The notes below the pieces were generated by a model. The model was not told where the DNA came from and did not search any database. It saw only the letters and a list, made by a program, of their open reading frames with translations. Below, piece by piece: positions 24,286-55,440 of a DNA stretch of 64,000 bases. The position numbers and the translations under genes are program-made. Source of the DNA: an uncultured Bacilli bacterium (GTDB taxonomy: Bacteria > Bacillota_I > Bacilli_A > RF39 > UBA660); NCBI GenBank assembly GCA_934157235.1, contig CAKPHH010000001.1, positions 131,330 through 195,329 of the forward strand, given 5' to 3'. Positions within the stretch are counted from its first letter, which is position 1. Each line of letters opens with the position of its first letter.

Positions 24286-26343
24286 ATGGTGATGCTAATG
24301 AATAAGTGTAAATTGAATAATCGAGGGTTTGCAATTTCTTCTGTATTATATTCCTTATTAATAATGGTCTTTTTAGTAGTAACATTAATGATGGGAATAA
24401 TGGCATCTAACAGAAGAAGTACCCATAAATTAGTTGATACAATTGAAGAAGAATTAAATCGATATGGTCTTTCTTCAACCGAATTAGGCTATAAAGATAA
24501 TGGTGGGAACCTAGAAGCTCAAGAGTATGTAGCTTTACAATCAGGCTGGTACAAAATAGAACTATGGGGTGCTGCAGGGGGCTCTACTAATTCAAAAATC
24601 GGAAATAAAGTTCGAAATGGTGGCAGAGGCTCTTATACATCTGGTCTTATTTATCTAAATAAAGATGATAAATTATATTTCTATATTGGTGGTACAACGA
24701 CTACTAATAAAGGCGGTGCCAATGGCGGCGGCGATGGTGGAACGGAAACTGGCATGGGCGGCGGCGGAGCTACTGATGTTCGCTATGGTACTGAATTAGA
24801 AACTAGAATAATGATTGCTGCTGGTGGTGGGGGAGCCGACTCTTTAGGAAAAGGATCATCTGGCGGCTCTGGTGGAATATTAAGCGGTAATAGTGCTAAT
24901 GTTAATAATACCAGTGATGGTACTTATACCAAAGCTGTATATGGTAAACAAGAAGGCCTAACAAGCCAAACACAAAGTAAAGCTAATGAGGCAACAATAA
25001 AAAAACTTTGTAATGCTGCGACCATGACATCTAATACTACTTTTGATTATAATGCCTGTGGTAGATTAGGTTATGGTGGAAGTGCCTCAGGTGCCAATGG
25101 TGGCGGCGGTGGAGCTGGTTACTTCGGCGGAGGTGCTGGAACTGGTAACAACTCTACATCTGGTTCTGGAGCTGGAGGTTCAAGCTTTATTGTAGGCTAC
25201 TCTGGAATATATATAAAGGGAATTACTGTAGATGAGACTTACTACATACCTGACCCAACAAGAGAAAGTCCATATTATTTCCTTGATGGTATGATATCAG
25301 GTGCAGTTAATAATGACGAAGGTCACGCTAAAATAGAACTTGTTTCCTTATTAGGAGCCGATGAAAAACCTCGTATCAGAAACAACGATTTGAAAGAAGT
25401 ACAATATATTAAAGACTGCACTAAAGGAACAAATGATAACCGAAAGGTTGCTTCTTGGATTGAACTACAAGCTTTAACAAACGGAACCAACGTTGCATTA
25501 AATAAACAATTAACAGTACTTAAAAATAATGCTGATATAACAGCTGACATTCAAGCCTCAACACTTAAAAGAGTGGTGGATGGAAATACATCCTCAGCCG
25601 TTCGCCTTGATGTTAATAAAGATACAAATGATGAAGTATGTGTAATTGTTAATCTTGGCAGCGTATACGAACTAGATGAAATATATGCTTATCACAGATG
25701 GGGTAACACTAGAAGTGCGGCAATATACGGCCATAACTTATCATTATCAACAGATAACAGAAATTGGAAGACAATTAAATCCTATACTGATGATAGTGTT
25801 GAAAGTCCTCCTGAACAGTCATCTGCTTACCGTTACACAGCATGGTCACTTAACCCAAGTGAAAAGATTGCTAAAGGAATTTATTTTATTAAGTCAGCTC
25901 TAGGTGGCGAAGGAAGATTCTTGGTAGCTCAAAACAATAACGACAGTGTCACTGGTGAGACAATGGCCGAACGCCACGTTTCCTTAGGCAAAAATCTTAA
26001 TGGTAATATCAATAAATGGGCCATTAGTGAACTTGATAATGGTTACTACAAAATTGTTGAAGTAGAAGGAAATAATGCCCTTCAAGTAAAAGATAACCTT
26101 GGTCAAGAAAATACTGCTGTAAATACAGCTGACAAACATGGTAAAGATTATGATTGGACACAATGGAAAATAACTCCACTAAAAGATGGAACCTATTATA
26201 TTCAAACCAAAGTTGGAAATAATTTTTATCTTGCCACAACGAAAAACTCCTTCTTTGTTGATTCAGACATAAGAATAACAAAAAAAGGTACTGGAGATAC
26301 CCTTTATACAACTAGATGGAAGCTAGAATTAGCATCATATTAG
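24286..26343 (+). CDS. Surface protein: prepilin-like/TM N-terminus, glycine-rich (Gly_rich-like) domain, F5/8 discoidin-like domain, C-terminal ricin-B (QxW) beta-trefoil lectin domain
   Basis: N-terminus NNRG|FAISSVLYSLLIMVFLVV. GGxGG-rich region at about aa 90-300. NRKVASWIELQ...AYHRWGNTR discoidin-like. C-terminal repeats with TQWKI and TRWKLE motifs. Confidence 0.7.
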   Translation: MVMLMNKCKLNNRGFAISSVLYSLLIMVFLVVTLMMGIMASNRRSTHKLVDTIEEELNRYGLSSTELGYKDNGGNLEAQEYVALQSGWYKIELWGAAGGSTNSKIGNKVRNGGRGSYTSGLIYLNKDDKLYFYIGGTTTTNKGGANGGGDGGTETGMGGGGATDVRYGTELETRIMIAAGGGGADSLGKGSSGGSGGILSGNSANVNNTSDGTYTKAVYGKQEGLTSQTQSKANEATIKKLCNAATMTSNTTFDYNACGRLGYGGSASGANGGGGGAGYFGGGAGTGNNSTSGSGAGGSSFIVGYSGIYIKGITVDETYYIPDPTRESPYYFLDGMISGAVNNDEGHAKIELVSLLGADEKPRIRNNDLKEVQYIKDCTKGTNDNRKVASWIELQALTNGTNVALNKQLTVLKNNADITADIQASTLKRVVDGNTSSAVRLDVNKDTNDEVCVIVNLGSVYELDEIYAYHRWGNTRSAAIYGHNLSLSTDNRNWKTIKSYTDDSVESPPEQSSAYRYTAWSLNPSEKIAKGIYFIKSALGGEGRFLVAQNNNDSVTGETMAERHVSLGKNLNGNINKWAISELDNGYYKIVEVEGNNALQVKDNLGQENTAVNTADKHGKDYDWTQWKITPLKDGTYYIQTKVGNNFYLATTKNSFFVDSDIRITKKGTGDTLYTTRWKLELASY

Positions 26344-34481: not shown

Positions 34482-34558
34482 TTAAAGTAATTGAGTTTTT
34501 TCTCTAAATAATGTAATATTATAAGAGAATAATGTAAAGAGTAAAGGGTGTGTTAAAT

Positions 34559-36382
34559 ATGACTTTAAGAATGTATGGAAGTATGGCTTTTGCAATTTGT
34601 GCTTTAGTATATTTAAGTTTTTTATTACTTATGTATATAAATAAGAAGAAAGTAGGGGGTATGCAAACTAAAGTATTTTCTGCCTTACTTGCTGCAGCAA
34701 TTTTCCTGTCTCTTAGTGAATGTGGTTACGTTTATGGACTTTCTGTTTTAAAAACAGATCCTAAATTAACTGAAATAACTTGTCGAATTTATACCTTTGG
34801 TATTTTATTAATTATAAATTTATTTATATATTATCTTATAACTATGTTTCAAAAAGGATACGAGAAAGAGAAACAACGTAAGAGAAATTTAATTGCCTTA
34901 GGTCTAGGAGTATTATTAACAGTTATAATTACTTTAATTTCTATATTGCTACCATTAGATTATACCAGTTCAAAATCTGGACTATATAATTTTGCTGGAC
35001 CAGCTACCACAATAGTATACGCTGAAGGATTCCTTTTATTCCTTGCTATATTTATTGTTATGATTATTAAAAGAAAAAAAATACCTAAAAGTCAACAGAG
35101 ACCTATTTATTTCTTTTTATTTATCTTCATTGTCTTTATATCTCCACAATTAATCTTTGATTATGACTTAAACTTAATTTCATTTAACTTTGCTTTCATG
35201 GTTTCAACTTTATACTTTACCCTTGAAAGTCAGGACAATAAGCTAGTTCAAGAACTTCAAGCTCTAAAAGAAGATGCTGAAACAGCCGATAAAGCTAAAA
35301 CAGAATTCTTAATAAATATGTCCCATGAAATTAGATCTCCTATGAGTACAATCTTAGGTTACAGTGAAATTCTTCTAAACGAAGAACCATTAACAGAAAG
35401 TGTTGCTAAAAGAGATACTGAAAACATCTATAATGCCAGTAATGTTTTAATGCAATCTATAAGTACTATACTTGATATTTCAGAATTAGAAAATGATAAA
35501 GAAGTAATTAGAAATGAACAATATAACATTAATAGTCTATTATTTGAAATAGAAGAGACAACCATTTCTAAAATTAAACGTGATATTGAATACAAGACAA
35601 TTTCAAATAACACTATTCCAAAAGAACTAATTGGTGATGTAGAAAAGATTCGTAAAATTCTTAATTACATAATTGATTATTTCTTAGATTCTACACCATC
35701 TGGAAAAATAACTTTATCAGTTAGTTCCAAAACACCAGATGCTGATAAATGTCAAATGTTCTTTACTATCACCAGCAACAATTGCCATATTTCTCAAGAA
35801 AAATTTGATATTGAATTTAATGATTTTGTTAAATTAGATGAAAATTCTGATAATTCTATTGATACTATTGATTTAAAATTAATAATCGCTAAAAAATATA
35901 TTGGCTTATTAAAAGGAAAAGTAGATTTCAACAATGAAAATAATAACTGCGATTGTACAATTCTATTACCACAAGGTATTGAGGAAAATGCTACTATTCC
36001 TCGCCAAACTGTAAGAGAAGAACATCCAGATAACAAAAAGACTGTCTTAATAGCCGATGAAAATAGAGTTAATCACATAATTATAAATAAATTTTTAGAA
36101 AATGATGGTTTTAATATCATGAATTCTTATAGTAAAGAAGATGCAAATAACAAAATTAGATTTGAAAAACTAGATTTAATTTTAATAGATTCGAACTTTT
36201 TAAATGAAGATTTAGAACACATACTTAAAGAAAAAACAGAACCTTGTGCTATTGTTGAAATGAATGAAAATCATGTTCTTAAGACCAAAGAATATGTTAA
36301 TGATATTATTTATAAACCTATAAGCAATGATTCTATCAGAAAAGTAATTAACAGATATATTAATGAAAAGGAAGTGAAATAA
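34559..36382 (+). CDS. Membrane histidine-kinase paralog: intact H-box, degenerate ATP-binding domain and degenerate receiver
   Basis: TM sensor ending [10 protein letters not shown]-box [15 protein letters not shown]. No DxGxG/GxGxG G-boxes in the HATPase-like part. Receiver-like C-terminus reads LIADEN...LILIDSN, missing the acidic pair. Start at ATG 34559, after GGGTG. Confidence 0.75.
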
Positions 36383-38238
36383 TGATTACAGGATTAACAC
36401 TAACTATTGGTAGTTTCTTTTTCATGATTTTGTTACTTATTGTTTATTTTTCACAAAATAAACAAAAAACAATTGAAACTAAATTATATAAATATATGCT
36501 TATTACTATGATGGCTTTAATCGTTACTGAGATTATCTTATGTGCCATAGTATATTACGCTGATAGTGAACAAATTAAAACTATAGCAGCAAGAATTCAC
36601 TGGCTCTCAGCTGTAGCTTGGTTCTACTTATTGTATTTTTACAGTATTGCCTTTCTACGTGACATATCAATCGATTCATTTGGCAAATATATGTTTTATG
36701 ATACTAGAAGCAAGATAATGACTATTTTTACTATAATCGTACTAATGGTATATTTCTTTATTCCATTTTCAAGTTTTGAAAAGATGTCTTATCTTCCAGG
36801 TCCAGCTGCCTACTTCTTAATTACCTATTGTACAATAGTTATGCTATGTATAATTGGCTATACTATTTTCCATGGTAAAGAAATCAATGCCCGTAAGAAA
36901 AAAACTATCTTTTTCCAAGTAATAATTCTAGCCGTTGATATGACTCTTCAATTTATGTTCAAAGATATTGCAATTGAAGCTATTGGTGCTGCTGTTCAAA
37001 TGTTCTACTTATACTTTAACATTGAAAATCCAGACATCAAAAATGTTGCTGAACTAGAAATTATAAAAGCTGATATTGATAAATCAAATAAAACTAAATC
37101 GGACTTCTTATCAAATATATCTAGCGAAATAGTTCATCCAATGAATACAATTATTAATTGTAGTAAATTAATACTGAAAGATGATAACTATACCGAAGAG
37201 AAGGCTAAAGGTTATATCAAAGAAATATCTATTGCCGGTAGTAATCTATTAAACATTATTGATAATGTCCTAGATATATCTGCTCTTGATTCTAACGAAG
37301 AAGTTCTTGATTCTAAAGAATACTCTGTTGTTAATATTGTTAAAGATATAACTGATGTAATCAATACAAAACTAGGTGAAAAACCCGTAGAATTTTTACT
37401 AGAAGTAGATGAACAAATACCAAGTAAATTATCTGGTGATCATAACAAGATATATCAAATTCTCTTGAATCTTTTATCTAATTCTATTGAACATACTGAA
37501 GTTGGTAAAATAAAGCTAACTATTGAAATGGAAAAGAAAGATAATGATAACTGTACTTTAGTAATTCGTGTAAACGATACTGGAACAGGAATGACTAGAG
37601 AAGAGTACGACAAAATAAATAGCATTCTAAATACCAAGGAATCAGATAATTCTAATAATATTGATGAAATAGGTTTAGGTTTATCTACTATAAAGAAATA
37701 CATTACTTTAATGAATGGTAATATAACTTTCCAAAGTGAATATGGAGTAGGTAGTTCTTTCCAAGTTCAAATAGACCAAAAAATAATTAACAATATGCCA
37801 GTAGGCGATGTCAAAAACACTATTAAATCTGATGAGAAAATCACTTACATTGATTGTTCTAGATACACAGTTCTAATAGTAGACGATGATGAATTAAGTT
37901 CTAAAGTAACTGAAAGAATGCTTGAGCCTTATAAATTTAACATCAAGAAAGTATCATCGGGAAGAGAATGTATTTATAATATTAAAGAAGATAATAAATA
38001 TGACTTAATATTTATGGATCATATGATGCAAAGTTTAAATGGTATTGAAACTCTTCACAAAATAAGAAAACTAGATGGTTATACCATTCCTCCAGTAATA
38101 GCTCTAACAGCTAACGCTATCTCTGGTATGCGTGAATTATATTTAAATGAAGGTTTTGATGAATACTTGCCAAAACCAATCAAAACAGCTGAACTTAATA
38201 GCTTAATTAAAAAGTATTTTGGTAAAGACTTACAATAA
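36382..38238 (+). CDS. Membrane hybrid histidine-kinase paralog: H-box His replaced (SSEIVHP), intact HATPase_c and receiver
   Basis: The TAATG overlap with the upstream kinase implies translational coupling. YFNIENPDIK junction. LSNISSEIVHPMNT replaces SHEIRTP. NDTGTGM and GLGLSTIKKY G-boxes. Receiver VLIVDDDE, LIFMDHMMQ, ALTANA, KP. Confidence 0.75.
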   Translation: MITGLTLTIGSFFFMILLLIVYFSQNKQKTIETKLYKYMLITMMALIVTEIILCAIVYYADSEQIKTIAARIHWLSAVAWFYLLYFYSIAFLRDISIDSFGKYMFYDTRSKIMTIFTIIVLMVYFFIPFSSFEKMSYLPGPAAYFLITYCTIVMLCIIGYTIFHGKEINARKKKTIFFQVIILAVDMTLQFMFKDIAIEAIGAAVQMFYLYFNIENPDIKNVAELEIIKADIDKSNKTKSDFLSNISSEIVHPMNTIINCSKLILKDDNYTEEKAKGYIKEISIAGSNLLNIIDNVLDISALDSNEEVLDSKEYSVVNIVKDITDVINTKLGEKPVEFLLEVDEQIPSKLSGDHNKIYQILLNLLSNSIEHTEVGKIKLTIEMEKKDNDNCTLVIRVNDTGTGMTREEYDKINSILNTKESDNSNNIDEIGLGLSTIKKYITLMNGNITFQSEYGVGSSFQVQIDQKIINNMPVGDVKNTIKSDEKITYIDCSRYTVLIVDDDELSSKVTERMLEPYKFNIKKVSSGRECIYNIKEDNKYDLIFMDHMMQSLNGIETLHKIRKLDGYTIPPVIALTANAISGMRELYLNEGFDEYLPKPIKTAELNSLIKKYFGKDLQ

Positions 38239-43694: not shown

Positions 43695-43820
43695 ATCAAT
43701 ATAAGTATATGTATACAAAACTTCTAGAGAGTATCTGTAAACAATAATGTCAAGCCTAGTTTAGGTCACTATGTTTTTACCAAAAAAGATGTTATACTAT
43801 AGTATGAAAGGATGATAAAA

Positions 43821-44327
43821 ATGAGTAGAGAAAATGATGTAATAAAAGATAAAGCGCATTATGATAGAATCTATGGTGGAGACAATCGTAGAGAAACAGA
43901 ACAAATATGGGAAAGAGAAAGAGCAGCAGCTAGAGTAAGAGATGAAAGAGATGAGTACGAAAGAAGAACAAGGGAGACTCAAAGAGAACATTCAGATCTA
44001 CTTAGAGGAATGTCGCCGGACGATCGAAGAAGATATGATGAAATGAGAAGAAGAGAAGAATTCTATAGAGGAATGGATTCGGAAAAAAGAGTATCAGCTT
44101 TAGGACGTGAAAGAGAAATTATTGATTATCAAAATCAGATGCAACAAAGACAAGATGCAAAAGCAAAAGAAAAAGCTGCTAGAGAATTGGCTTTCAAAAA
44201 AGCAAAAATGCGTTATAACTCTCTAAACCCACTAGTTAAAGTTTTCTCAAAAAATCCAGACAAAATAGATTATGGATCAATGAGTGCCGATAGAATTGAC
44301 TCTCTATATGGAGGTAAGAAAAGATGA
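43821..44327 (+). CDS. Highly charged R/E/D-rich protein of unknown function
   Basis: Start at MSRENDV after GAAAGGA. Runs of RE/RR/ER dipeptides (ERERAAARVRDERDEYERRTRETQREH). Locally GC-richer codons. Confidence 0.5.
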   Translation: MSRENDVIKDKAHYDRIYGGDNRRETEQIWERERAAARVRDERDEYERRTRETQREHSDLLRGMSPDDRRRYDEMRRREEFYRGMDSEKRVSALGREREIIDYQNQMQQRQDAKAKEKAARELAFKKAKMRYNSLNPLVKVFSKNPDKIDYGSMSADRIDSLYGGKKR

Positions 44328-44608
44328 TGGATGAACTTAACATCGCATTCAATGATTATATTGATGCCTACAAAGATTTAGATATAGCCGAAAAAAGAAA
44401 AGAAATGATAAATAATATTAAAGAAATGATTGCTATGATCGAACAAACGGCTACTGATGAAGGAATCGTATTAAACTACCTAAGAAGTAGAGAAATACTA
44501 GATTTAGACGAAGGTCGAGAAAGTGAAGACGATTACTTAGAAGCTCTACTTGTATACGTTGAAAACTTTAAAAATATCTTAGGACAATATCTAGATAAAA
44601 GAAAATAA
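44324..44608 (+). CDS. Small acidic protein (94 aa), translationally coupled to the preceding gene
   Basis: The start overlaps the upstream stop (GATGATGG). Acidic, helical. Confidence 0.5.
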   Translation: MMDELNIAFNDYIDAYKDLDIAEKRKEMINNIKEMIAMIEQTATDEGIVLNYLRSREILDLDEGRESEDDYLEALLVYVENFKNILGQYLDKRK

Positions 44609-44974: not shown

Positions 44975-47900
44975 ATGAAAGAAATTAATGCCATAGTAAA
45001 AAGGTTAAAATATCCAGTTGCTACAATTGTACTAGTAACTGCCTGTTATATCTGTTTAACTGCCAAGGAAACTTTTAGTGCGGATACAAAAAATTATACT
45101 AGGGATGAATTGCAAAAAATGGTCGTATCTGCTGCTATTAGCTACTACTACAACAATTACTATTCTGATTATGAAGAATATTTATTGGATTCAGATATTG
45201 TATATCCCTATATTGGGGGAAAAAACGATGTATCATCTGAAAATAAAAACAAATGCATTTTAGATTATCAAAATAAAACTGGATGTGTTTCGGCCGATAA
45301 TTACTACCCACTAATATCAACAACTTTTTACAGAAATCTAAAAATAACTCCAGAAGAAGTAAGCCGTTCTAATATGTATAACACTGATTGCACGGGTTTT
45401 ACTTATTTAGTATATAATAATGTCTTAGGTTATGATTTGTCAGAATTTTATGCAATGGCAACTTCTGCAAACGTTGTTAGAATTAATTCCAATGGTACAC
45501 CAGAAAAAACAAAAGCTGTAACATCAAAGAAGGATTATTTTGATACTGCTAATAAGTTTGGTAGGGCATGGAACAGCACTGGTAATTTAGGAAGGATCGC
45601 CAATTGTTTAGCAACTAACGCCGGAAACAGAAATGCCTGCATTTTTAGTGATGTCTTATCTTCTAATGATATGAAAAAATATGCTGCAGGTGGTACCAAC
45701 TTTAAAGAGGGTGTAATTTATACAGATCCAGATAATAAATCAGAGCTTATTTTTAATTATAATTTTACAAATCTTGACTACCAAAAAGAAACTAACTATA
45801 CAGCCTATAAAGTTGAGTGGGAGAAAATAGAAAAATATTTTAAAGCTGATAGCAGTGATTTTATAATGCAAGCAGGAGATATGTTACGACTTGCTTATAG
45901 ATCAAATGGGCATGTCATGGTTTACGTCGGTAAGGTTTTCAACTCAAATGACACCGGTCTTATTCACTCTACAGGAACAGATGGTAATAGCGATGATTTT
46001 GGTGTTAGATATGAGTCAAACATATATAATTATTTAAATGATAAAATGTCATACTTAAAGAATAATGGAGACAAAAATAGAATAATAAGTATATCGGTAT
46101 TTAGACCTATCAATAAATATTGTGATAAAACAATATGTACCAAAGAAAATATTGCTTCTAATATTACTCCTAATGATAAAGCACGAGTGACTTTTTCAGG
46201 CACTAGAGTTGAACAATACATTGCTAAAGATGGTAGAGGTATCAGTTCTTATAACTCTGTTGATATTGGTGATACTATCACTTATGGCCTAAGTCTAGAG
46301 GATAAAAGAAAATATGGTTATTGTTCAAATAGTTCAAAAGCAAAAAAAGACTGTGCTTGTACAGAAGAAAATCCAAATTGTGGATTAAAATGGGTTGAAA
46401 CTGGCAATTCCTATGATGAAGGACCATCAGGCAAGAAAAAATACACAATAAAATTCACTTCGCCAAAAGGAACAACATTAAAAGAATGTCCCAAAGCATT
46501 TAGCAAAACCACTAATTCAGACAATAGTGTATCATGTGTATATACTGGAACTGGTTGGAATTACCCACAGTTTAATGTTAATATTGATAGTTCAGCTCCT
46601 AGTAAAATAGAGCCAGGAAAATTTGAAGTTACATACAATGGTAGTACTTTAGAACTAAAAACAATTGAATTGAATGTTAATCGAACTATAAATTTTAATG
46701 ATATTAGTAATCTAAATGAAAAGATAAATGAATTCAAAAATAAAAATTACACTTATAGCACTAGCAACCAAATTAGTGATAAAAATAGTATGAACAAAGT
46801 AACCACATTTTCATCATTAGACTTCATTAAATATATTTATTGGAAAAACTTTAAAATTGATTTGACTAATTTAACAGGACAGAAAATTGTTGATTCTTTA
46901 TTTTATTCGTATTCCAAATCTTCTACTCAGAAATATAACACTAAAAATTACACATACAAATATAGTGCCTTTTTCAAGAAGAATGGAACTGATGATGCTA
47001 TCAGTAAAATGCTAGTAGATGGAATGTATGGCGGTAAAAAGCTAATCGGTAATGAAGATGGAAAAAGAATTAAGTATATCCACCATAGATACTTTGAAAT
47101 TGGTGATATTATTGTAGTATCAGATAAAATTAATGATAATTTTTCTCACAGTGGAGTTGGGAATTCTTTAAACTTCAGTTTAACTACAATAAATCCAAAT
47201 ACTGATTTTAAATATTATATGGTTACTGATTTTGATAAGAATGGTTACCCAACATTAATTAATTTCAGTGAAAATGGTGTTGAGTCTTGTGATAAAACTA
47301 TTAAAACATTTAGTGGCGAAGGAAATTATCTCATGAACAATGGTAAGAATTATTTGTGTAATTATAGGGTAATAAAACACTTATTATATTCATCAAACTT
47401 ATTTGCAGTACTTAGACCAAGTAAAGTATATAATGATGCTGAGTATGAAGTAGTTCTACATTATGATCAAAAACCAACAACAGAAGAAACTCCAAGAACA
47501 AACTTGAAATATAATACTAAATATCCAGTGCCAACAATATCTAAAACAGGATACGAGTTTGATGGATGGTACACTGAACTTTCTGTCAATGACAAAGGCG
47601 AGTATGTGTACAATAAAAAAGCAACTAAAGTTAATTTACACACCGATCATGAAGTATGGGCAAAGTTTTCTCCTATTGAATATAATCTTACCATCAAACC
47701 TAACGGTGGTACTTTCTCTGGTGCTACCTCTGTAAAAGTTGCCTATAAAAAAGAATATACTCTTCCAACTATTACTAGAGAAGGCTATACTTTCGTTAAA
47801 TGGCAAGTATCAGGTAAAGACAGTAGTATAAATGGAAACACACTAACAATGGGGAACGAAGATGCAACAGCAACGGCAGTTTGGAAAGAAAATGATCATC

Positions 47901-48313
47901 TAATATTTGATAGTTCTCTATCAGTAGACAAAAATAATAAGATAATCTATCACATTAAAGCGAGCTCTTTAATGAGTGACATATTAAATAAGACTTCCAC
48001 AAATGGCACAGTCGTTTTATATGATAACAAAAACAATATTATTAAAGAAAATCATCTAGTAGCAACCGGTTACATTATGTCATTTAAATTTGTAAGCCAA
48101 ACTATTAATTATAAAGTTGCTGTAAAAGGAGATGTAACAGGGGATGGTTATGTTAAAGTTAATGATGTTATGAAGATTGCTAACTATTTACTGGAAAATA
48201 AAGGATTAACTGGTGAGTACCTTATAGCTGCAGATATAAATAGTGATAATAAAGTAAAAATGAATGACTTGATGAAGTTAGCAACTACTATGATAAATGG
48301 AGGAAATTTATGA
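44975..48313 (+). CDS. Secreted multidomain protein: signal peptide, NlpC/P60-like papain-fold domain, a second Cys-to-Ser degenerate copy, two Listeria-Bacteroides (Flg_new-like) repeats, C-terminal type-I dockerin
   Basis: Signal peptide MKEINAIVKRLKYPVATIVLVTACYICLTA. NTDCTGFTYLVY plus GHVMVYVGK...IHSTG form a Cys/His/His triad. Later copy FSSLDFIKYIY...GDIIVV...SHSGV has Ser for Cys. GYEFDGWYTE and GYTFVKWQVSG repeats. C-terminus GDVTGDGYVKVNDVMKIANYLLE and ADINSDNKVKMNDLMKLATTMI are two dockerin Ca-binding repeats. Confidence 0.75.
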   Translation: MKEINAIVKRLKYPVATIVLVTACYICLTAKETFSADTKNYTRDELQKMVVSAAISYYYNNYYSDYEEYLLDSDIVYPYIGGKNDVSSENKNKCILDYQNKTGCVSADNYYPLISTTFYRNLKITPEEVSRSNMYNTDCTGFTYLVYNNVLGYDLSEFYAMATSANVVRINSNGTPEKTKAVTSKKDYFDTANKFGRAWNSTGNLGRIANCLATNAGNRNACIFSDVLSSNDMKKYAAGGTNFKEGVIYTDPDNKSELIFNYNFTNLDYQKETNYTAYKVEWEKIEKYFKADSSDFIMQAGDMLRLAYRSNGHVMVYVGKVFNSNDTGLIHSTGTDGNSDDFGVRYESNIYNYLNDKMSYLKNNGDKNRIISISVFRPINKYCDKTICTKENIASNITPNDKARVTFSGTRVEQYIAKDGRGISSYNSVDIGDTITYGLSLEDKRKYGYCSNSSKAKKDCACTEENPNCGLKWVETGNSYDEGPSGKKKYTIKFTSPKGTTLKECPKAFSKTTNSDNSVSCVYTGTGWNYPQFNVNIDSSAPSKIEPGKFEVTYNGSTLELKTIELNVNRTINFNDISNLNEKINEFKNKNYTYSTSNQISDKNSMNKVTTFSSLDFIKYIYWKNFKIDLTNLTGQKIVDSLFYSYSKSSTQKYNTKNYTYKYSAFFKKNGTDDAISKMLVDGMYGGKKLIGNEDGKRIKYIHHRYFEIGDIIVVSDKINDNFSHSGVGNSLNFSLTTINPNTDFKYYMVTDFDKNGYPTLINFSENGVESCDKTIKTFSGEGNYLMNNGKNYLCNYRVIKHLLYSSNLFAVLRPSKVYNDAEYEVVLHYDQKPTTEETPRTNLKYNTKYPVPTISKTGYEFDGWYTELSVNDKGEYVYNKKATKVNLHTDHEVWAKFSPIEYNLTIKPNGGTFSGATSVKVAYKKEYTLPTITREGYTFVKWQVSGKDSSINGNTLTMGNEDATATAVWKENDHLIFDSSLSVDKNNKIIYHIKASSLMSDILNKTSTNGTVVLYDNKNNIIKENHLVATGYIMSFKFVSQTINYKVAVKGDVTGDGYVKVNDVMKIANYLLENKGLTGEYLIAADINSDNKVKMNDLMKLATTMINGGNL

Positions 48314-49737
48314 AAAAATTATTTTTTGTCTTTTTACTTGTCCTTTCTATAATATTTTTACCAAGTGTAAATGCTAGTAGTATTGATACAAGTATAAATT
48401 GTCCGTCTACTGTTTATGTTGGCGATGGTATTAGTTGTACTATATATGGTATTGCTAGTGATGTTTACTTATCTGGAATAAAGGCTAATTATGAAATAGC
48501 TAATGCATCATATACATCATTTTCTGTTGGTAGTGACTGGGTTGCTTATGCATCTAATAATAATGGTTTTGTTATTGGAAATACTTCTGGAGGAAAAACA
48601 GGAAGAGTAGTTTTAGGAGTTCTAAAAGTACAACCGACAGTTGGTGTTTCAGGAAGAGTTACAGTTGGTATAAAAACGGTAAATGCATCTGATGTTTCAT
48701 ATAATGATTATGATTTAGCAGCTAGAAGTAGTGTTGTAACAATTGTAGAAAGACCAAAACCGCCTACACCTACACCAACTCCAACTCCAACTCCATCTAC
48801 ACCTACACCCACACCAACCCCATCTACACCTACGACTCCCCAAAATCCACAGCAACCAGAAGAACAAGAGGATGTTTATCTCGATAGTCTAGAAGTTGTT
48901 GAATCTAAATTGGATTTCAAGAAGGATGTTTATGAATATTTAGTAGAAGTTAATGAAAACGTAAGAGAAATAACTATTAAAGCTACTTCTAAATTTAATA
49001 TAGAAGGTACTGGCAAATTTAAATTAAATAGTACTACTAATAAATTTTTAGTAAAAGTTAAAGGAAAGAAGAAAACTAAAACTTATACAATACGAATAAA
49101 TAAAGTAAGTAATAAAGTTAAAAATAATAAAGAAGAAATAGAAAAAGCATTAACTAAATATGATACAGTTATTGTAGATTTAGATAATAAGAAAGATGAC
49201 TTGAAAGCTTATAAAGAAGTTCTTGACAAAGTAAAAGAAACTAAAAAGAAAATTATATATAATATTTATGATAATAATAAGCTGCTATATACTTATACTT
49301 TTAATGGTAATAAAGTAGATTATGTATTAGACAATATAGATTTAAGTATTAGTTTTACAACAAATAAAAATATAGATAATCTTGAAAATAATAAAATTAT
49401 ATTAGATATGAAGTATAAAAGTTATTTTCCAAAAGGAACTGAACTAAAAATATATGATACTAAGAAGTTAAAAAATAAAAGTATAAAACTATTTAAAATT
49501 AACGAAGAAAATGGTTTAGAATTAATAAAGAATAATATAAATACCAAGGATAATGATGTAACTCTAATATTAGAAAAGGGAGATTTATACGTGATTGGTA
49601 GTGAAAAGAGTACTATTTTAGGATATGAAAAGATGGTTATTGTTCAAGCTATTCTGATAATTATTATTTTATTAGCACTAATATATTTTATGATAAAGTG
49701 TTCGCATTTAAGAAAAGATGATAGTGAAATTAGTTAA
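48310..49737 (+). CDS. C-terminally membrane-anchored surface protein: signal peptide, cohesin-like beta-sandwich, Pro/Thr linker, cadherin-like beta-sandwich, C-terminal TM
   Basis: ATGA overlap with the upstream gene. Signal peptide LSIIFLPSVNASS. Cohesin-like N-domain VYVGDGISCTIYGIASDVYLSGIKANYEIANASYTSFSVGS...RVVLGVLKVQP. Linker PKPPTPTPTPTPTPSTPTPTPTPSTPTTP. LDSLEVVESKLDFKKDVYEYLVEV...KTYTIRINK cadherin-like. TM IVQAILIIIILLALIYFMI near the C-terminus. Confidence 0.7.
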   Translation: MKKLFFVFLLVLSIIFLPSVNASSIDTSINCPSTVYVGDGISCTIYGIASDVYLSGIKANYEIANASYTSFSVGSDWVAYASNNNGFVIGNTSGGKTGRVVLGVLKVQPTVGVSGRVTVGIKTVNASDVSYNDYDLAARSSVVTIVERPKPPTPTPTPTPTPSTPTPTPTPSTPTTPQNPQQPEEQEDVYLDSLEVVESKLDFKKDVYEYLVEVNENVREITIKATSKFNIEGTGKFKLNSTTNKFLVKVKGKKKTKTYTIRINKVSNKVKNNKEEIEKALTKYDTVIVDLDNKKDDLKAYKEVLDKVKETKKKIIYNIYDNNKLLYTYTFNGNKVDYVLDNIDLSISFTTNKNIDNLENNKIILDMKYKSYFPKGTELKIYDTKKLKNKSIKLFKINEENGLELIKNNINTKDNDVTLILEKGDLYVIGSEKSTILGYEKMVIVQAILIIIILLALIYFMIKCSHLRKDDSEIS

Positions 49738-51530: not shown

Positions 51531-53159
51531 ATGTATACGGAAGAATATGAAGCGAAAGGATTTCCATTTAAGAATTTTTTATTAAAATTAATTTTAATAA
51601 TTATTTTTGTGTTCCTATTAGCTTGGTTATTACCTAAATTTATTACACCAGCAATTAATAATAGTCTCAAAGATAATAATGGAAACAGTAGTGAGATAAA
51701 CGCTTTAACATCACAAATATTTAATGATAATCTAGAAAAAATGAAGCAAGCAGCAATCTCATATTACACAGATGAAAGATTGCCACAAAAAAATGGTGAA
51801 TACAAGCAAATGACTTTAAGTGAAATGATAGGCTTAAAATTAATTACACCATTAATCGATAAGAATAATAAAGCTGTAGATGTTGAGGCTAGTTATGTAA
51901 AAATAACTAAAGACGCTAACGAATATATCTTAAAAGTAAATATTAAAGACAGTGAAAAAGAAGATTATATTTTAGTACATTTAGGTTGCTACACATACTG
52001 TAAAACAAGCATTTGTGAAAAGAAAGATGATACAATCTACATCAAGAATACTCCAGTAACACCAGATACACCAGTAGTAAAAAAATACTATTGTAAAATA
52101 GTTAATGGTAGTTATTATGGCAAAGGTGGAAGTATTGTTGATAAAAACACTTACGAAAAAGAATGTATTACCAAACCGGTAGAAAAACATTATTGTGCTA
52201 TTGTAAATGATAAGTATTATGGTAAAGCAGGAACTGTTGTTAATAAGGAAACTTATGAAAAAGAATGTACTACAACACCAGAAAAACATTACTGTGAAAT
52301 AGTTAATGGAAAATACTATGACAAAGAAGGTAATGAAGTAAGCAAAGAAAAATATGAAGATAGTTGTGTAGAAAAAGAGTACTTATACGAGTATGCTAAA
52401 ACAACAAATGCTACGTTTAGTAGTTGGACAAAATGGGCAAACTGGCAAGAAACAAGTTGCCAAACTAAAGCTATTACTTGTGCTGCTACTGATATTAACT
52501 GTTTAAAAGAACAAAAATTATATAGCCGTAAAGAAAAAATTGGTACGCATGAACAAGAATACTTAAAAGAGCGTAGTGTTCAAATTAAAGCTTCTTCATA
52601 TAATGAAAAAGTATGTATTGGTTACACTTATGTAATCATTAACAAAGTAACATATGCTGTATCAAAAACGTATACAAATGTAAGCACTATAACATCATCA
52701 ACACAAGGTTCAGTAGCAGGATGGAATTATGAGGGTAGAGGATCATATGCTAATCCTCCAAGAGATACTGAGAATACACATTATGAATTTGTAGGTGCAG
52801 ATTATAGTTATTGTACTGATACATGTACAACATTACCAAATTACTATTATGACAAGTATACATACACTGGTAGCATGACAAAAGTATCATCAACTAAAGA
52901 AGCTCCAGTAAATTCTTCAACATCAGTAGTAGCAACTTGTAATAGTTATACTACTAATGAAGTAACTGTATACAGAACTATTACTAAAAATGAAATAGCA
53001 ACAAGACCAGAACCATTATATGGAACTGTATGCTATGCAAGTACAAGAACAAGAACTCTAACATCTAGTGGAAAAACCAAAAAGAGATGGAGTTTCTATA
53101 ACGATACAAGTTTATTAAATGATAATTGGTACTATACTGGTGCCAAAAAGTTAAAATAA
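51531..53159 (+). CDS. Type-II membrane, Cys-rich repeat protein (unknown function)
   Basis: N-terminal TM FLLKLILIIIFVFLLAWLL. Three tandem ~33-aa repeats (K)[HY]YC[KAE]IVN[GD][SK]YY[GD]K[GAE]G...KE.YE[KD][ES]C, each with two Cys. Additional Cys pairs and a T/S-rich C-terminus. Confidence 0.6.
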   Translation: MYTEEYEAKGFPFKNFLLKLILIIIFVFLLAWLLPKFITPAINNSLKDNNGNSSEINALTSQIFNDNLEKMKQAAISYYTDERLPQKNGEYKQMTLSEMIGLKLITPLIDKNNKAVDVEASYVKITKDANEYILKVNIKDSEKEDYILVHLGCYTYCKTSICEKKDDTIYIKNTPVTPDTPVVKKYYCKIVNGSYYGKGGSIVDKNTYEKECITKPVEKHYCAIVNDKYYGKAGTVVNKETYEKECTTTPEKHYCEIVNGKYYDKEGNEVSKEKYEDSCVEKEYLYEYAKTTNATFSSWTKWANWQETSCQTKAITCAATDINCLKEQKLYSRKEKIGTHEQEYLKERSVQIKASSYNEKVCIGYTYVIINKVTYAVSKTYTNVSTITSSTQGSVAGWNYEGRGSYANPPRDTENTHYEFVGADYSYCTDTCTTLPNYYYDKYTYTGSMTKVSSTKEAPVNSSTSVVATCNSYTTNEVTVYRTITKNEIATRPEPLYGTVCYASTRTRTLTSSGKTKKRWSFYNDTSLLNDNWYYTGAKKLK

Positions 53160-53172
53160 GGGGGAGTTTTAA

Positions 53173-55440
53173 ATGAATAAGGAGATAAAAAATATAGTAT
53201 TTTACACTTTTGAAAGTGAAACTGGTCCTAGAACTCAAACATGTATTTTCTACATGGATGGTTCTGTAAAAAATACTAACGAAGAAGAAGGAAGAGAACT
53301 TCAAGAAGCACTAAAGAAAGGTGAAATCACTCCAAGAGATCCTTCCAAAGTACATGTTTATAAAATGACAGGTGAAATTCTAGAAAGAGACTTTGACCTA
53401 CTTAAAGGAAGAGGCGAAGACATTGAATTTGCCGATGTGCCTTCAAAGAAAACTAAGAAAGCCAAAAAAAGCTTCACAGAAACATTAAAAACAATAACAG
53501 GTATAAATTTAATAAAAAAACTTAATGATAAAAGAAAAGCTAAAAAGGCTGCCAAAGAAGCTGCAAAATTAGATGATGAAGTTGAAGTTGAAGACGAGAT
53601 AGAAGAAGAAAAAAGCAAAAAGAGCTTTATTGAAGTCCTAAAGACAATTACAGGTGTAAACTTAGCTAATAAAATTAAAGCTAAATATAAAGCTAAGAAA
53701 AAAAATTATGAAGAAAAGAAAGCTAGTAAGCCAAAGAAAGAAGAAGGTAAATTCAAGAAATTCTTCAAAAAAACATTCATTGGTAAAATAGCTAGACAAG
53801 TTGCTGCTCTAGCAACTGCTGCTGTAATCCTATTTGTACCAGGCTGTTCAAGCAAAACTCAAAGTAATGCAGATAAAGAACCAACCGCCATCAACGATAC
53901 TGTAGAAATGGGAACTGATGACTTATTAAAAGAAACACTAAGTTTTGCTGGAATGTTAAAATTATCCAAAAGTGAAACTCAAAAAGACTTTATGTTTAAT
54001 ATTAGTCAAGCTTTAAGTACTTATAATATAACTTTTGCTAAAGCTTATGTTGAACAAGGAAAAGACATAAAAGCTGCCTTAACTTGGGATGAAGCTGTAG
54101 CTATGGCTATTGTTTATAATAATTACTCTAAAGAAGAACTAATTGAGATATTTAATGGTGCTGATTTAGATGTAGAGGCTTTAAAAGATGCCTACAAAAC
54201 AGCAAACTTACAATTAATGGGTGCTCATGTAATCGAAACAGAAGCAAATCCAGTAGATATGTCTCAATTACTAGGAAGCAAAGAAGCAAAAGCCTTCTAT
54301 AAAAAATATCATGATATGTTCCTTGCTTGTAAAAAAGCTACTGGAACTGATCAAATAAATAAAGTAAATGCTTTTTACCAAGAATTATATAAAGACTTCC
54401 CAATTACCGAGAAAGTTAGGGAAGAGGGGATTGCACATAGTGATTCTAGAAAGAGCGTTGAATCTTATAAATTTTCAGTTATACCAATGGTAAGTGCTTC
54501 AGAAATGTTATTCCAAAACTTAAAAACTGATAAAACACTTCAAGATAAAGCAATTGCCTATCTAAATGATGTTGGTGTATGTAATCGTGCTAACGATTTA
54601 ATTGAAAGAGCCGCAACAATCAACTTAATGACAAAGAGTGAAGATGATTGTATAGACTATGAGTTATTAAAAAATGCTAAGATTAGTGAGTTAAAAGAAG
54701 CAAAGGCGTATGGTATAAGCGATGAAGAACGTGATTTAAGTAAGTTAGATAGTTTCAAAAAAACCCTAAATGCTAATTCTAAGTTCACTGCTAAAACTAC
54801 AACTAAAACTACAACTGAAACAGTAACAGAATATAGAACAGAAACAACAAGAGAAACAACAGGCGATAGAGATCAAGCTGTAAAAGCTGCCGGTGCTGAT
54901 AAAGTAGACGCTGCTGAAAGAGAAGCAGATAAAGCAGTTAAAAAAGAAAACGAAGCAGCTCGTAAAGATGCCGAGAAAAAAGCTGATGAAGAAGCTAAAC
55001 GCCAACAAGAAAAATCTGATGCTGAAAAGAAAGTCTTAGAAAACGACATAGCTCAAAAAGATAAGGATTTACAAGATAAAATCGACAAAGCAAACGAAGA
55101 TATTAATAATGATCAATCAGTAAGTGAAAAAGATTTTGGCGACCATGACGTTGATTTTGATAACGATCATTCAGACAAAGATGGTAAGTTAAATGATTCT
55201 GTTAAGGATATTACAACAGATCCATCTGGTGATATGACAAATCAACCATTACCAGATCCAAATGCTGATGATGAATATGTATCTACACCAAGTAAAAAAG
55301 CAACAGATCAAACAATCTATGAGTATGAAGAACCATACACTATGACAAATGAAGAAAAAGCTGCTGCTATAGTAGAACAAATGGCAAATGAAACAACATA
55401 TGGTGTTGATAGAGCAAAAACATATACATATCATAAATAA
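53173..55440 (+). CDS. Bitopic membrane protein with an N-terminal repeat region and a long extracellular coiled-coil/charged C-terminus
   Basis: Two N-terminal ~55-aa repeats (KKSFTETLKTITGINLIKKLN... / KKSFIEVLKTITGVNLANKIK...). Internal hydrophobic segment IARQVAALATAAVILFVPGCSS (TM or lipobox-like). Thr-rich KTTTKTTTETVTEYRTETTRETT and K/E/D coiled coil. Confidence 0.6.
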   Translation: MNKEIKNIVFYTFESETGPRTQTCIFYMDGSVKNTNEEEGRELQEALKKGEITPRDPSKVHVYKMTGEILERDFDLLKGRGEDIEFADVPSKKTKKAKKSFTETLKTITGINLIKKLNDKRKAKKAAKEAAKLDDEVEVEDEIEEEKSKKSFIEVLKTITGVNLANKIKAKYKAKKKNYEEKKASKPKKEEGKFKKFFKKTFIGKIARQVAALATAAVILFVPGCSSKTQSNADKEPTAINDTVEMGTDDLLKETLSFAGMLKLSKSETQKDFMFNISQALSTYNITFAKAYVEQGKDIKAALTWDEAVAMAIVYNNYSKEELIEIFNGADLDVEALKDAYKTANLQLMGAHVIETEANPVDMSQLLGSKEAKAFYKKYHDMFLACKKATGTDQINKVNAFYQELYKDFPITEKVREEGIAHSDSRKSVESYKFSVIPMVSASEMLFQNLKTDKTLQDKAIAYLNDVGVCNRANDLIERAATINLMTKSEDDCIDYELLKNAKISELKEAKAYGISDEERDLSKLDSFKKTLNANSKFTAKTTTKTTTETVTEYRTETTRETTGDRDQAVKAAGADKVDAAEREADKAVKKENEAARKDAEKKADEEAKRQQEKSDAEKKVLENDIAQKDKDLQDKIDKANEDINNDQSVSEKDFGDHDVDFDNDHSDKDGKLNDSVKDITTDPSGDMTNQPLPDPNADDEYVSTPSKKATDQTIYEYEEPYTMTNEEKAAAIVEQMANETTYGVDRAKTYTYHK

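Follow-up and report, generated by a model that had tools for sequence, protein, structure and literature searches.

In a 64,000-nucleotide stretch of DNA from an uncultured Bacilli bacterium (contig CAKPHH010000001.1; the whole stretch is called the window below), two overlapping genes encode a secreted protein that ends in a dockerin (P1) and a type I membrane anchor that carries a cohesin-fold domain (P2). We propose, with a probability of about 0.75, that P1 and P2 constitute a two-gene, membrane-anchored surface-display cassette based on a non-cellulosomal cohesin–dockerin pair. Briefly, P1 is composed of a signal peptide, an NlpC/P60-like domain (D1), a beta-rich middle region, a degenerate second domain (D2), two InlB B-repeats, an X-like module and the dockerin, and P2 of a signal peptide, the cohesin-fold domain, a Pro/Thr linker, a cadherin-like domain, a conserved region, a transmembrane helix and a short basic tail. 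The ATG of P2 (48310-48312) overlaps the TGA of P1 (48311-48313), and the ribosome-binding site of P2, GGAGG, lies within the codons for ...NGGNL, the last residues of the dockerin. With hidden Markov models (HMMs) built for both families, a single dockerin and a single cohesin-like domain were found in the window. The two open reading frames (ORFs), their coordinates and their ATGA overlap are as proposed in the first-pass annotation of this DNA, and the signal peptide, Pro/Thr linker and membrane anchor that it assigned to P2 can be read directly in the sequence. The features of the gene pair are as follows.

44975..48313, + strand: P1, secreted cargo, ORF of 1112 amino acids (ORF, Pfam, family alignment)
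44975..45079, + strand: predicted signal peptide or signal anchor of P1, residues 1-35, hydrophobic core VATIVLVTACYICLTA (from the translation)
45080..46159, + strand: D1, NlpC/P60-like papain-fold domain, residues 36-395 (PF00877 in homologues, conserved catalytic candidates)
45389-45391, 45911-45913 and 45965-45967, + strand: D1 catalytic candidates Cys139, His313 and His331, respectively (family alignment)
46160..46687, + strand: Cys-containing, beta-rich middle region of P1, residues 396-571, kept across the P1 family
46688..47470, + strand: D2, degenerate NlpC/P60-fold domain, residues 572-832, Ser614 at the nucleophile Cys position
47477..47893, + strand: two Listeria-Bacteroides (InlB B-repeat / Flg_new) repeats, residues ~835-973 (Pfam, PDB)
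47897..48109, + strand: X-like module before the dockerin, residues ~975-1045, FDSSLSVDKNNKIIYHI..., common to other dockerin proteins of the system
48110..48310, + strand: dockerin, residues 1046-1112, internally symmetric repeats ...GYVKVNDVMKIANYL... and ...NKVKMNDLMKLATTM...
48299..48313, + strand: translational-coupling junction, GGAGG at 48299-48303, 6-nucleotide spacer, ATGA at 48310-48313
48310..49737, + strand: P2, type I membrane anchor, ORF of 475 amino acids (ORF, family)
48376..48753, + strand: cohesin-fold N-terminal domain, residues 23-148 (AF2 model, Foldseek, weak profile matches)
48754..48867, + strand: Pro/Thr-rich linker, residues 149-186 (from the translation)
48868..49101, + strand: cadherin-like beta-sandwich, residues ~187-264 (PF12733)
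49102..49632, + strand: conserved membrane-proximal region of P2, residues 265-441 (aligned across the family)
49633..49695, + strand: C-terminal transmembrane helix, residues 442-462, MVIVQAILIIIILLALIYFMI, followed by KCSHLRK... (from the translation)

The dockerin and the cohesin-fold domain

The dockerin at the C-terminus of P1 is recognized by Pfam, with PF00404 matching residues 1051–1102 at 34.6 bits against a curated cut-off of 22.9, and it scores 95.5 bits with the family HMM built here. Furthermore, the P1 family profile matches the XynY dockerin (2ccl_B) among the PDB sequences with an E value of 4.8e-4. Two repeats of ~22 residues were identified, each formed by a Ca loop of the EF-hand type (D-x-[DN]-x-D ... 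D at position 12) and a following helix. Loop 2, DINSDNKVKMND, is a canonical Ca loop; loop 1, DVTGDGYVKVND, has Thr in place of Asn/Asp at position 3, where the sister cassettes described below have Asn. The type-I dockerin of the first-pass annotation is confirmed, with its Ca-loop pattern kept and its loops as given there. The two repeats are nearly symmetric (KVNDVMKIA and KMNDLMKLA) and in this resemble dual-binding-mode type I dockerins, of which near-symmetric repeats are a trait. The motif of the preceding X-like module is also present in proteins that combine a cohesin, an X module and a dockerin.

The AlphaFold (AF2) model of the N-terminal domain of P2, calculated from a 54-sequence alignment, has a predicted local distance difference test score (pLDDT) of 97.6. 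In the Foldseek search of the PDB, its best match is 2vo8, the cohesin of the Clostridium perfringens GH33 enzyme (E 1.4e-8, template-modelling score (TM) 0.81), and nine of the top 11 matches are cohesins. Further cohesin matches include 2xdh from Archaeoglobus, 2jh2, 2w1n, 2o4e, 4fl4 and 6kgc_A, the last being C. acetobutylicum CohA2 solved in complex with a dockerin. Weak links are also found at the sequence level: the wider 54-sequence profile matches the cohesin chains 4uyp_A (E 0.013), 10uv_A (0.021) and 5n5p_A (0.25) among the PDB sequences, and PF00963 matches six of the 54 relatives of the domain (best E 5.2e-4). Because cohesins lead the Foldseek matches and these profile links point the same way, the domain is, as modelled, a remote cohesin-fold subfamily that is invisible to Pfam; both the predicted beta-sandwich fold of a cohesin and a genomic association with dockerins are found. 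The 54 sequences share an invariant Cys31/Cys43 pair and Gly86, and the P2 domain has a GF.xGN motif. Among 1.84 billion cluster representatives, 182 relatives were found with a profile at E <= 1e-3, and the domain directly follows a signal peptide or anchor in nearly all of them.

The remaining part of P2 forms the putative stalk. The proposed cadherin-like beta-sandwich is weakly matched in P2 itself (PF12733, E 0.038, 14.9 bits, cut-off 24.2) and clear in 15 of the 16 aligned family members (best E 7e-19), while the region of residues 265–441 has no Pfam match. A hydrophobic stretch near the C-terminus is present in eight of the 11 anchors of this type compared below.

Pairing across related loci

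Eleven loci that encode an anchor with a signal peptide, a cohesin-like domain and a cadherin-like domain were compared, namely the window, six others where the anchor is closely or moderately related to P2, and four distant loci whose cohesin domains are only 30–35% identical. The gene directly 5' of the anchor ends in a dockerin in every one of them (11/11). The ATGA overlap is found in nine of the 11 pairs, and in most a GGAGG within the dockerin tail precedes it. The cargo in front of the dockerin is exchanged among these loci. In L009, L011 and L013, it is a papain C1-like peptidase of 1202–1468 residues with GLUG motifs, which resembles P1 solely in the last ~110–180 residues (X-like module and dockerin, 41–55% identity). 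The X-dockerin tail remains 48–55% identical in the three C1-peptidase/GLUG cargos that were compared. The cargos of L016, L018 and L019 are also C1 peptidases, two of the three with lectin-like domains, and that of L017 is a leucine-rich repeat (LRR) protein.

A direct fusion was found in P0076 (locus L004), which is 51% identical to P1. It has neither a dockerin nor a downstream anchor, and its X-like module runs into three cadherin-like domains and a transmembrane helix; it corresponds to the proposed assembly with the non-covalent link replaced by a covalent one. In L021, the P1 homologue (61% identical) carries a divergent dockerin with AIDFDNNNTFDYND as the second repeat. The N-domains of the proteins flanking it are missed by the HMM of the window's cohesin type (type A), and hhalign aligns them to type A with a probability of 94% (E 2.4e-8). 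Since this divergent dockerin is flanked by divergent cohesin-like domains, the dockerin type and the cohesin type change together. The pairwise identities of dockerins and cohesins across the 11 pairs are correlated (r = 0.88), which shared phylogeny alone could give. Collectively, the 11/11 adjacency with swapped cargo, the direct-fusion relative and the co-varying types support P1 and P2 as a cognate pair, and the self-contained anchoring pair envisaged in the first-pass annotation gains support from comparative genomics.

The N-domain is not confined to anchors. It also occurs in proteins of ~315 residues fused to an X-like module and a dockerin, and in tandem copies, architectures typical of adaptor scaffoldins. 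Three consecutive overlapping genes of this kind occupy L020:1-2575, each encoding ~315–330 residues with a transmembrane or signal segment, a cohesin-like domain, an X-like module and a dockerin; these proteins could in principle chain head to tail.

Other observations were made at the related loci. At L021:3979-10909, three genes encode a signal peptide–cohesin'–cadherin–X–dockerin' protein (666 residues), the P1 homologue with dockerin' (1089 residues) and a signal peptide–cohesin'–cadherin–transmembrane protein (544 residues), all of which would share the divergent specificity termed 'type B'; genes for a sortase and a SpaA-type pilin are found 4–6 kb downstream of this cluster. At L011:6270-7256, a third gene directly 3' of the anchor encodes a 328-residue protein whose C-terminal 120 residues are a cohesin-like domain (HMM E 2.7e-41). 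At L010:693-1022, the gene 5' of the anchor encodes only 109 residues, comprising the X-tail and the dockerin (PF00404, 37.3 bits); the product differs little from the C-terminal end of the 1468-residue cargo of L009, and this could be a cargo gene that was truncated or disrupted, or an error of assembly. At two loci, proteins with an N-terminal methylation motif of the prepilin type are encoded one to three genes 5' of the P1 homologue, namely at L004:4580-6448 (motif MKKNGFTLVELLAVISIL...) and at L014:1122-2417 (PF07963).

The hydrolase-like cargo and its proposed display

The enzyme part of P1 starts with D1. PF00877 matches 16 of the 19 members of the P1 family (best E 5.2e-6), and in the 19-sequence alignment C139 (DCTGF), H313 (GHVMVYVG) and H331 (IHSTG) are nearly invariant, providing candidates for the catalytic Cys, the His and the third polar residue of such an enzyme. 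An insertion of ~170 residues separates the Cys helix from the His strand. Given the conserved residues and the PF00877 matches in the family, D1 is most plausibly a cysteine hydrolase of the NlpC/P60 type in which this insertion is unusually long, and it looks catalytically competent (Cys139-His313-His331). The middle region that follows (residues 396–571) has no match in the Pfam or PDB searches.

D2 is predicted to adopt the NlpC/P60 fold, and no catalytic Cys or His was found in it. Its nearest structures are the murein endopeptidases MepS, CwlO, LytE and Acd24020. In the AlphaFold model of residues 572–832, Ser614, the second Ser of FSSLDF, takes the nucleophile Cys position at the N-terminus of the helix of residues 614–626. 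Most homologues have Ser here, P0077, P0078 and P0080 have Ala, and the candidate His is not conserved in the family alignment; therefore D2 is treated as a pseudoenzyme, that is, as a catalytically dead NlpC/P60 fold according to the model and not as an active member of the family. A search of the PDB sequences with the D2 profile found nothing. Comparison of D1 with D2 by hhalign aligned only a 12-column GD hairpin (probability 0.6%), so a duplication is not demonstrable from sequence. The two InlB-type repeats are matched by PF09479 (E 2.9e-11) and PF18998 (E 1.5e-8), and the P1 family profile matches InlB structures in the PDB at E 5e-7. The main elements that the first-pass annotation assigned to the enzyme part thus hold up: the intact Cys/His/His arrangement, the degenerate second copy with Ser as the nucleophile, and the Listeria-Bacteroides repeats.

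The gene structure, the identity or fold of the domains and the conserved pairing are shown by these data; from them we infer the physical binding of P1 to P2, their topology and the substrate. Both proteins would be exported by Sec. P2 would be held in the membrane by its C-terminal helix, with the stalk of Pro/Thr linker, cadherin-like domain and conserved region holding the single cohesin at its tip, away from the cell. P1 would be released, and its C-terminal X-module and dockerin would plug into the P2 cohesin in a Ca2+-dependent manner, so that a non-covalent link would tether P1 to the cell that makes it. Through the ATGA overlap and the Shine-Dalgarno sequence in the last codons of the dockerin, the synthesis of cargo and anchor would be coupled, which would favour balanced amounts of P1 and P2. 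The dead D2 copy and the two InlB-type repeats probably hold or select the substrate, for which peptidoglycan stem peptides, or a related gamma-glutamyl or peptide linkage at or near the cell surface, are the likeliest candidates. The target of D1 may belong to the cell's own wall, to foreign peptidoglycan or muropeptides, or to non-peptidoglycan material.

Several results weigh against this display cassette. The cohesin-like N-domain claimed in the first-pass annotation stands at the level of the fold, with 2vo8 as the best match, and fails by sequence: PF00963 does not match P2 itself, and no cohesin was returned from the PDB sequences with P2 alone or with the profile of its close family. 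Foldseek also returns non-cohesin beta-sandwiches (CLIPPER and YcnI) at E 1e-5 to 1e-4. D1 of P1 itself scores 20.7 bits with PF00877, under the 23-bit cut-off; the D2 model is of moderate confidence (pLDDT 71.7, predicted template-modelling score (pTM) 0.76) and has no significant Foldseek match. Finally, no cohesin gene lies within 8 kb of the gene for P0077 (locus L005), a dockerin-bearing relative of P1, so the pairing of dockerin and cohesin is not obligatorily in cis.

Among the alternatives, the one that survives best concerns the enzyme. P1 may not be a peptidoglycan hydrolase, and D1 may instead be a protease, acyltransferase or transglutaminase-like enzyme acting on host or dietary proteins, like the C1 cargos of the sister cassettes, whose peptidases carry lectin-like or GLUG domains. 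The atypical ~170-residue insertion between Cys and His, the score below the NlpC/P60 cut-off and the P1 family profile, which matched InlB repeats and dockerins but no NlpC/P60 chain among the PDB sequences, all fit this view, and the NlpC/P60 superfamily is known to include enzymes that do not act on peptidoglycan. On the other side, NlpC/P60 is the best Pfam relationship for 16 of the 19 homologues, and the structures nearest to D2 are murein endopeptidases; we consider this alternative rather unlikely, though it keeps appreciable weight.

A second explanation accepts the cohesin and disputes its exclusive partner. P2 would be a general cohesin hub, with competition for its single cohesin among several dockerin proteins whose genes lie elsewhere in the genome, cohesin-X-dockerin adaptors included, while the P1 dockerin may bind other cohesins and the operon would reflect no more than the co-expression of one client. 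The solitary dockerin of P0077, the fusion and tandem-cohesin proteins, which are sometimes arranged in gene arrays as in L020, and the additional cohesin-bearing genes adjoining the pair in L011 and L021 are consistent with such a hub. It is nevertheless unlikely, in view of the single dockerin and single cohesin-like domain in the 64-kb window, the adjacency at 11 of 11 loci with translational coupling at nine, which suggests a 1:1 relationship, and the local co-variation of dockerin and cohesin types. Finally, the possibility that the P2 N-domain is a cohesin-shaped adhesin for a host or dietary ligand and the P1 dockerin a Ca-binding stabilizing or wall-binding tail, the two genes being merely co-transcribed, would agree with the missing Pfam match and the non-cohesin sandwiches, but is very improbable because cohesins dominate the top structural matches, the dockerin is kept at the 11 adjacent loci while the cargo changes, the fusion relative P0076 has lost both dockerin and cohesin, the divergent dockerin and cohesin of L021 change jointly, and the N-domain occurs with dockerins in single proteins.

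Comparison with known systems and genomic setting

Cohesin–dockerin pairs are familiar chiefly from cellulosomes, which they glue together. A cellulosome-like complex has been defined by a scaffoldin with at least two cohesins together with dockerin-bearing glycoside hydrolases (PMC13487519). With its single cohesin, and with no glycoside hydrolase domain found by Pfam in the 64-kb window, the P1/P2 pair is not a cellulosome, an amylosome or a mucinolysome. The cell-anchoring scaffoldins of those systems resemble the proposed P2 anchor in using a cohesin bound to the cell to capture dockerins, which often follow an X module, and so to keep secreted proteins on the surface. In C. thermocellum, for example, type II cohesins are anchored by S-layer homology (SLH) domains. 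Scaffoldins are anchored by LPXTG/sortase or SLH, whereas P2 would be anchored by a C-terminal transmembrane helix, and the P1/P2 system has one cargo per anchor per operon in place of a multi-cohesin scaffoldin. Limousia mucinolysomes combine dockerin-bearing peptidases with a sortase-anchored cohesin, cSca5 (PMC12997984).

In structure, the P2 N-domain comes closest to cohesins from the cohesin–dockerin toxin complexes of C. perfringens (GH33 NanJ, GH84C; 2vo8, 2jh2, 2w1n, 2o4e), a gut Firmicute that assembles its toxin enzymes by non-cellulosomal cohesins and dockerins (PMC12997984). As proposed for P2, these are single cohesins used outside cellulose degradation, where they join secreted enzymes. 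However, the C. perfringens cohesins sit within glycoside hydrolases and link enzymes to one another, whereas P2 presents a single cohesin on a dedicated, transmembrane-anchored protein, the P1 cargo is a cysteine hydrolase, the genes are translationally coupled, and sequence identity is only 11–14%. The gene arrangement is closest to that of ClcC and ClcD from Cellulosilyticum lentocellum, adjacent genes with a single cohesin and a single dockerin whose complex was shown experimentally in 2026 (PMC13487519). Like P1/P2, they pair one cohesin gene with one dockerin-enzyme gene, but ClcC targets a GH5 cellulase to cellulose through CBM3, whereas P2 is a membrane anchor with a cadherin-like domain, the cargo of the P1/P2 type is an NlpC/P60 enzyme or C1 peptidase, and the cohesin is not recognized by Pfam.

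For the enzyme part, Ruminococcus flavefaciens carries dockerins on transglutaminase-like proteins and peptidases (PMC2930009), with papain-like, transglutaminase-like and NlpC/P60-like modules among them (PMC2930009; PDB 4eyz). Those proteins belong to the large cellulosome of a fibre degrader, whereas P1 combines tandem active and dead NlpC/P60 domains with InlB repeats and has its own anchor gene. Compared with MepS/Spr, CwlO, LytE and Acd24020, D1 has the ~170-residue insertion and a score below the Pfam cut-off, D2 is without the nucleophile, and P1 is targeted by a dockerin rather than by the LysM, SH3b or lipobox modules of these murein endopeptidases.

The first-pass annotation had regarded a dockerin on such an enzyme, and a pairing outside cellulolytic clostridia, as atypical. 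This was overstated, because dockerins on transglutaminase-like and peptidase modules (PMC2930009, PMC12997984) and an adjacent single cohesin/dockerin gene pair (PMC13487519) have already been published. Non-cellulosomal cohesins and dockerins are likewise documented (Peer et al. 2009, as cited in PMC13487519), and the concept of non-cellulosomal pairing is not new. Four features appear to be new here: a subfamily of cohesins that is invisible to Pfam and sits on a cadherin-like stalk with a transmembrane anchor; its strict pairing, with translational coupling, to cysteine-hydrolase cargos that are interchangeable; the group of host bacteria; and a cargo with a live and a dead NlpC/P60 domain in tandem. 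Among the 12 top-ranked full-text literature matches, none described a dockerin/cohesin system of this kind in RF39, Tenericutes, Mollicutes or Erysipelotrichales.

More broadly, the pair may be one instance of a widespread, previously undescribed surface-display system of reduced-genome gut Bacilli, in which Pfam-invisible Cys-pair cohesins (at least 182 clusters at 50% identity) sit on cadherin-like transmembrane stalks, each translationally coupled to an interchangeable dockerin-tagged hydrolase, with cohesins of two or more specificities (types A and B) co-evolving with their dockerins. We put this generalization forward tentatively, and the odds lie somewhat against it. If true, the tandem-array cohesin-X-dockerin proteins could chain into longer assemblies, and an NlpC/P60 cargo could harvest muropeptides from the peptidoglycan of other bacteria. 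Related uncultured Bacilli orders are reported to have thin or missing walls and reduced sets of lyt/cwl endopeptidases, possibly to rely on scavenged muropeptides, and in some cases to be without sortase (PMC10868615); in such lineages the display system would replace wall-based anchoring. This wall and sortase context is only suggestive, because a sortase is found near the L021 cluster.

As proposed, a minimal operon-encoded plug and socket would display cysteine hydrolases on the membranes of gut Bacilli that are uncultured and have small genomes, and about whose surface biology almost nothing is known. The cassettes indicate which secreted enzymes may be kept at the surface (NlpC/P60 enzymes, papain C1 peptidases and LRR proteins), a set that bears on how these bacteria deal with, or draw nutrients from, host material and the other bacteria around them. 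Cohesin surveys based on PF00963 will miss these systems because the subfamily escapes standard Pfam annotation. In the cargo-swapping cassettes, nature also provides cohesins and dockerins that are already matched, with two or more types of specificity; these are possible orthogonal parts for protein assembly.

The region of P1 and P2 is ordinary chromosome. Its neighbours in the window include gyrB/gyrA, hrcA-dnaK-dnaJ, thyA, ppdK, thioredoxin and RNase HII, and the guanine-plus-cytosine content is ~29–30% across the window; an origin from a mobile element was rejected, as the pair sits amid gyrBA, hrcA-dnaK-dnaJ, thyA and ppdK. A Wzx/MurJ-like flippase is the only wall-related gene in the window. 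No terminator was found between or 3' of the two genes in a scan whose promoter and terminator counts did not differ from those of shuffled sequence, and Rfam and tRNA scans found nothing but two tRNAs, far downstream of the pair. The nearest genomic relatives are metagenome-assembled genomes of uncultured Bacilli from gut samples. The closest is the human-gut isolate HGM10852, in which P1 is 84% identical, while genomes further away carry the label 'uncultured Tenericutes'.

Other genes in the window, all on the + strand, are recorded here as minor observations. Directly 5' of P1, two small overlapping ORFs (43812-44608) encode proteins of 171 residues (extremely Arg/Glu-rich) and 94 residues, which match no Pfam family and keep the same position in L001 and L002. 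Just 3' of the pair, two large ORFs (51531-53159 and 53173-55440) encode proteins of 542 and 755 residues with no Pfam match at E <= 1e-5. The former has an N-terminal transmembrane segment and three ~28-residue Cys-containing repeats (HYC.IVN.KYYGK.G..V.KE.YEKEC), the latter is highly charged with a central transmembrane segment, and both are kept in L001. Three hybrid histidine kinase/response regulators, each a single chain with HisKA, HATPase_c and receiver domains, are encoded within the 64 kb (361-2301, 34550-36382 and 36382-38238), two of them adjacent. At 24286-26343, a 685-residue protein combines an ALK/LTK glycine-rich domain (PF12810, E 8e-35) with NedA-like galactose-binding and ricin-B lectin domains, a secreted-looking architecture that is unusual for small-genome Bacilli.

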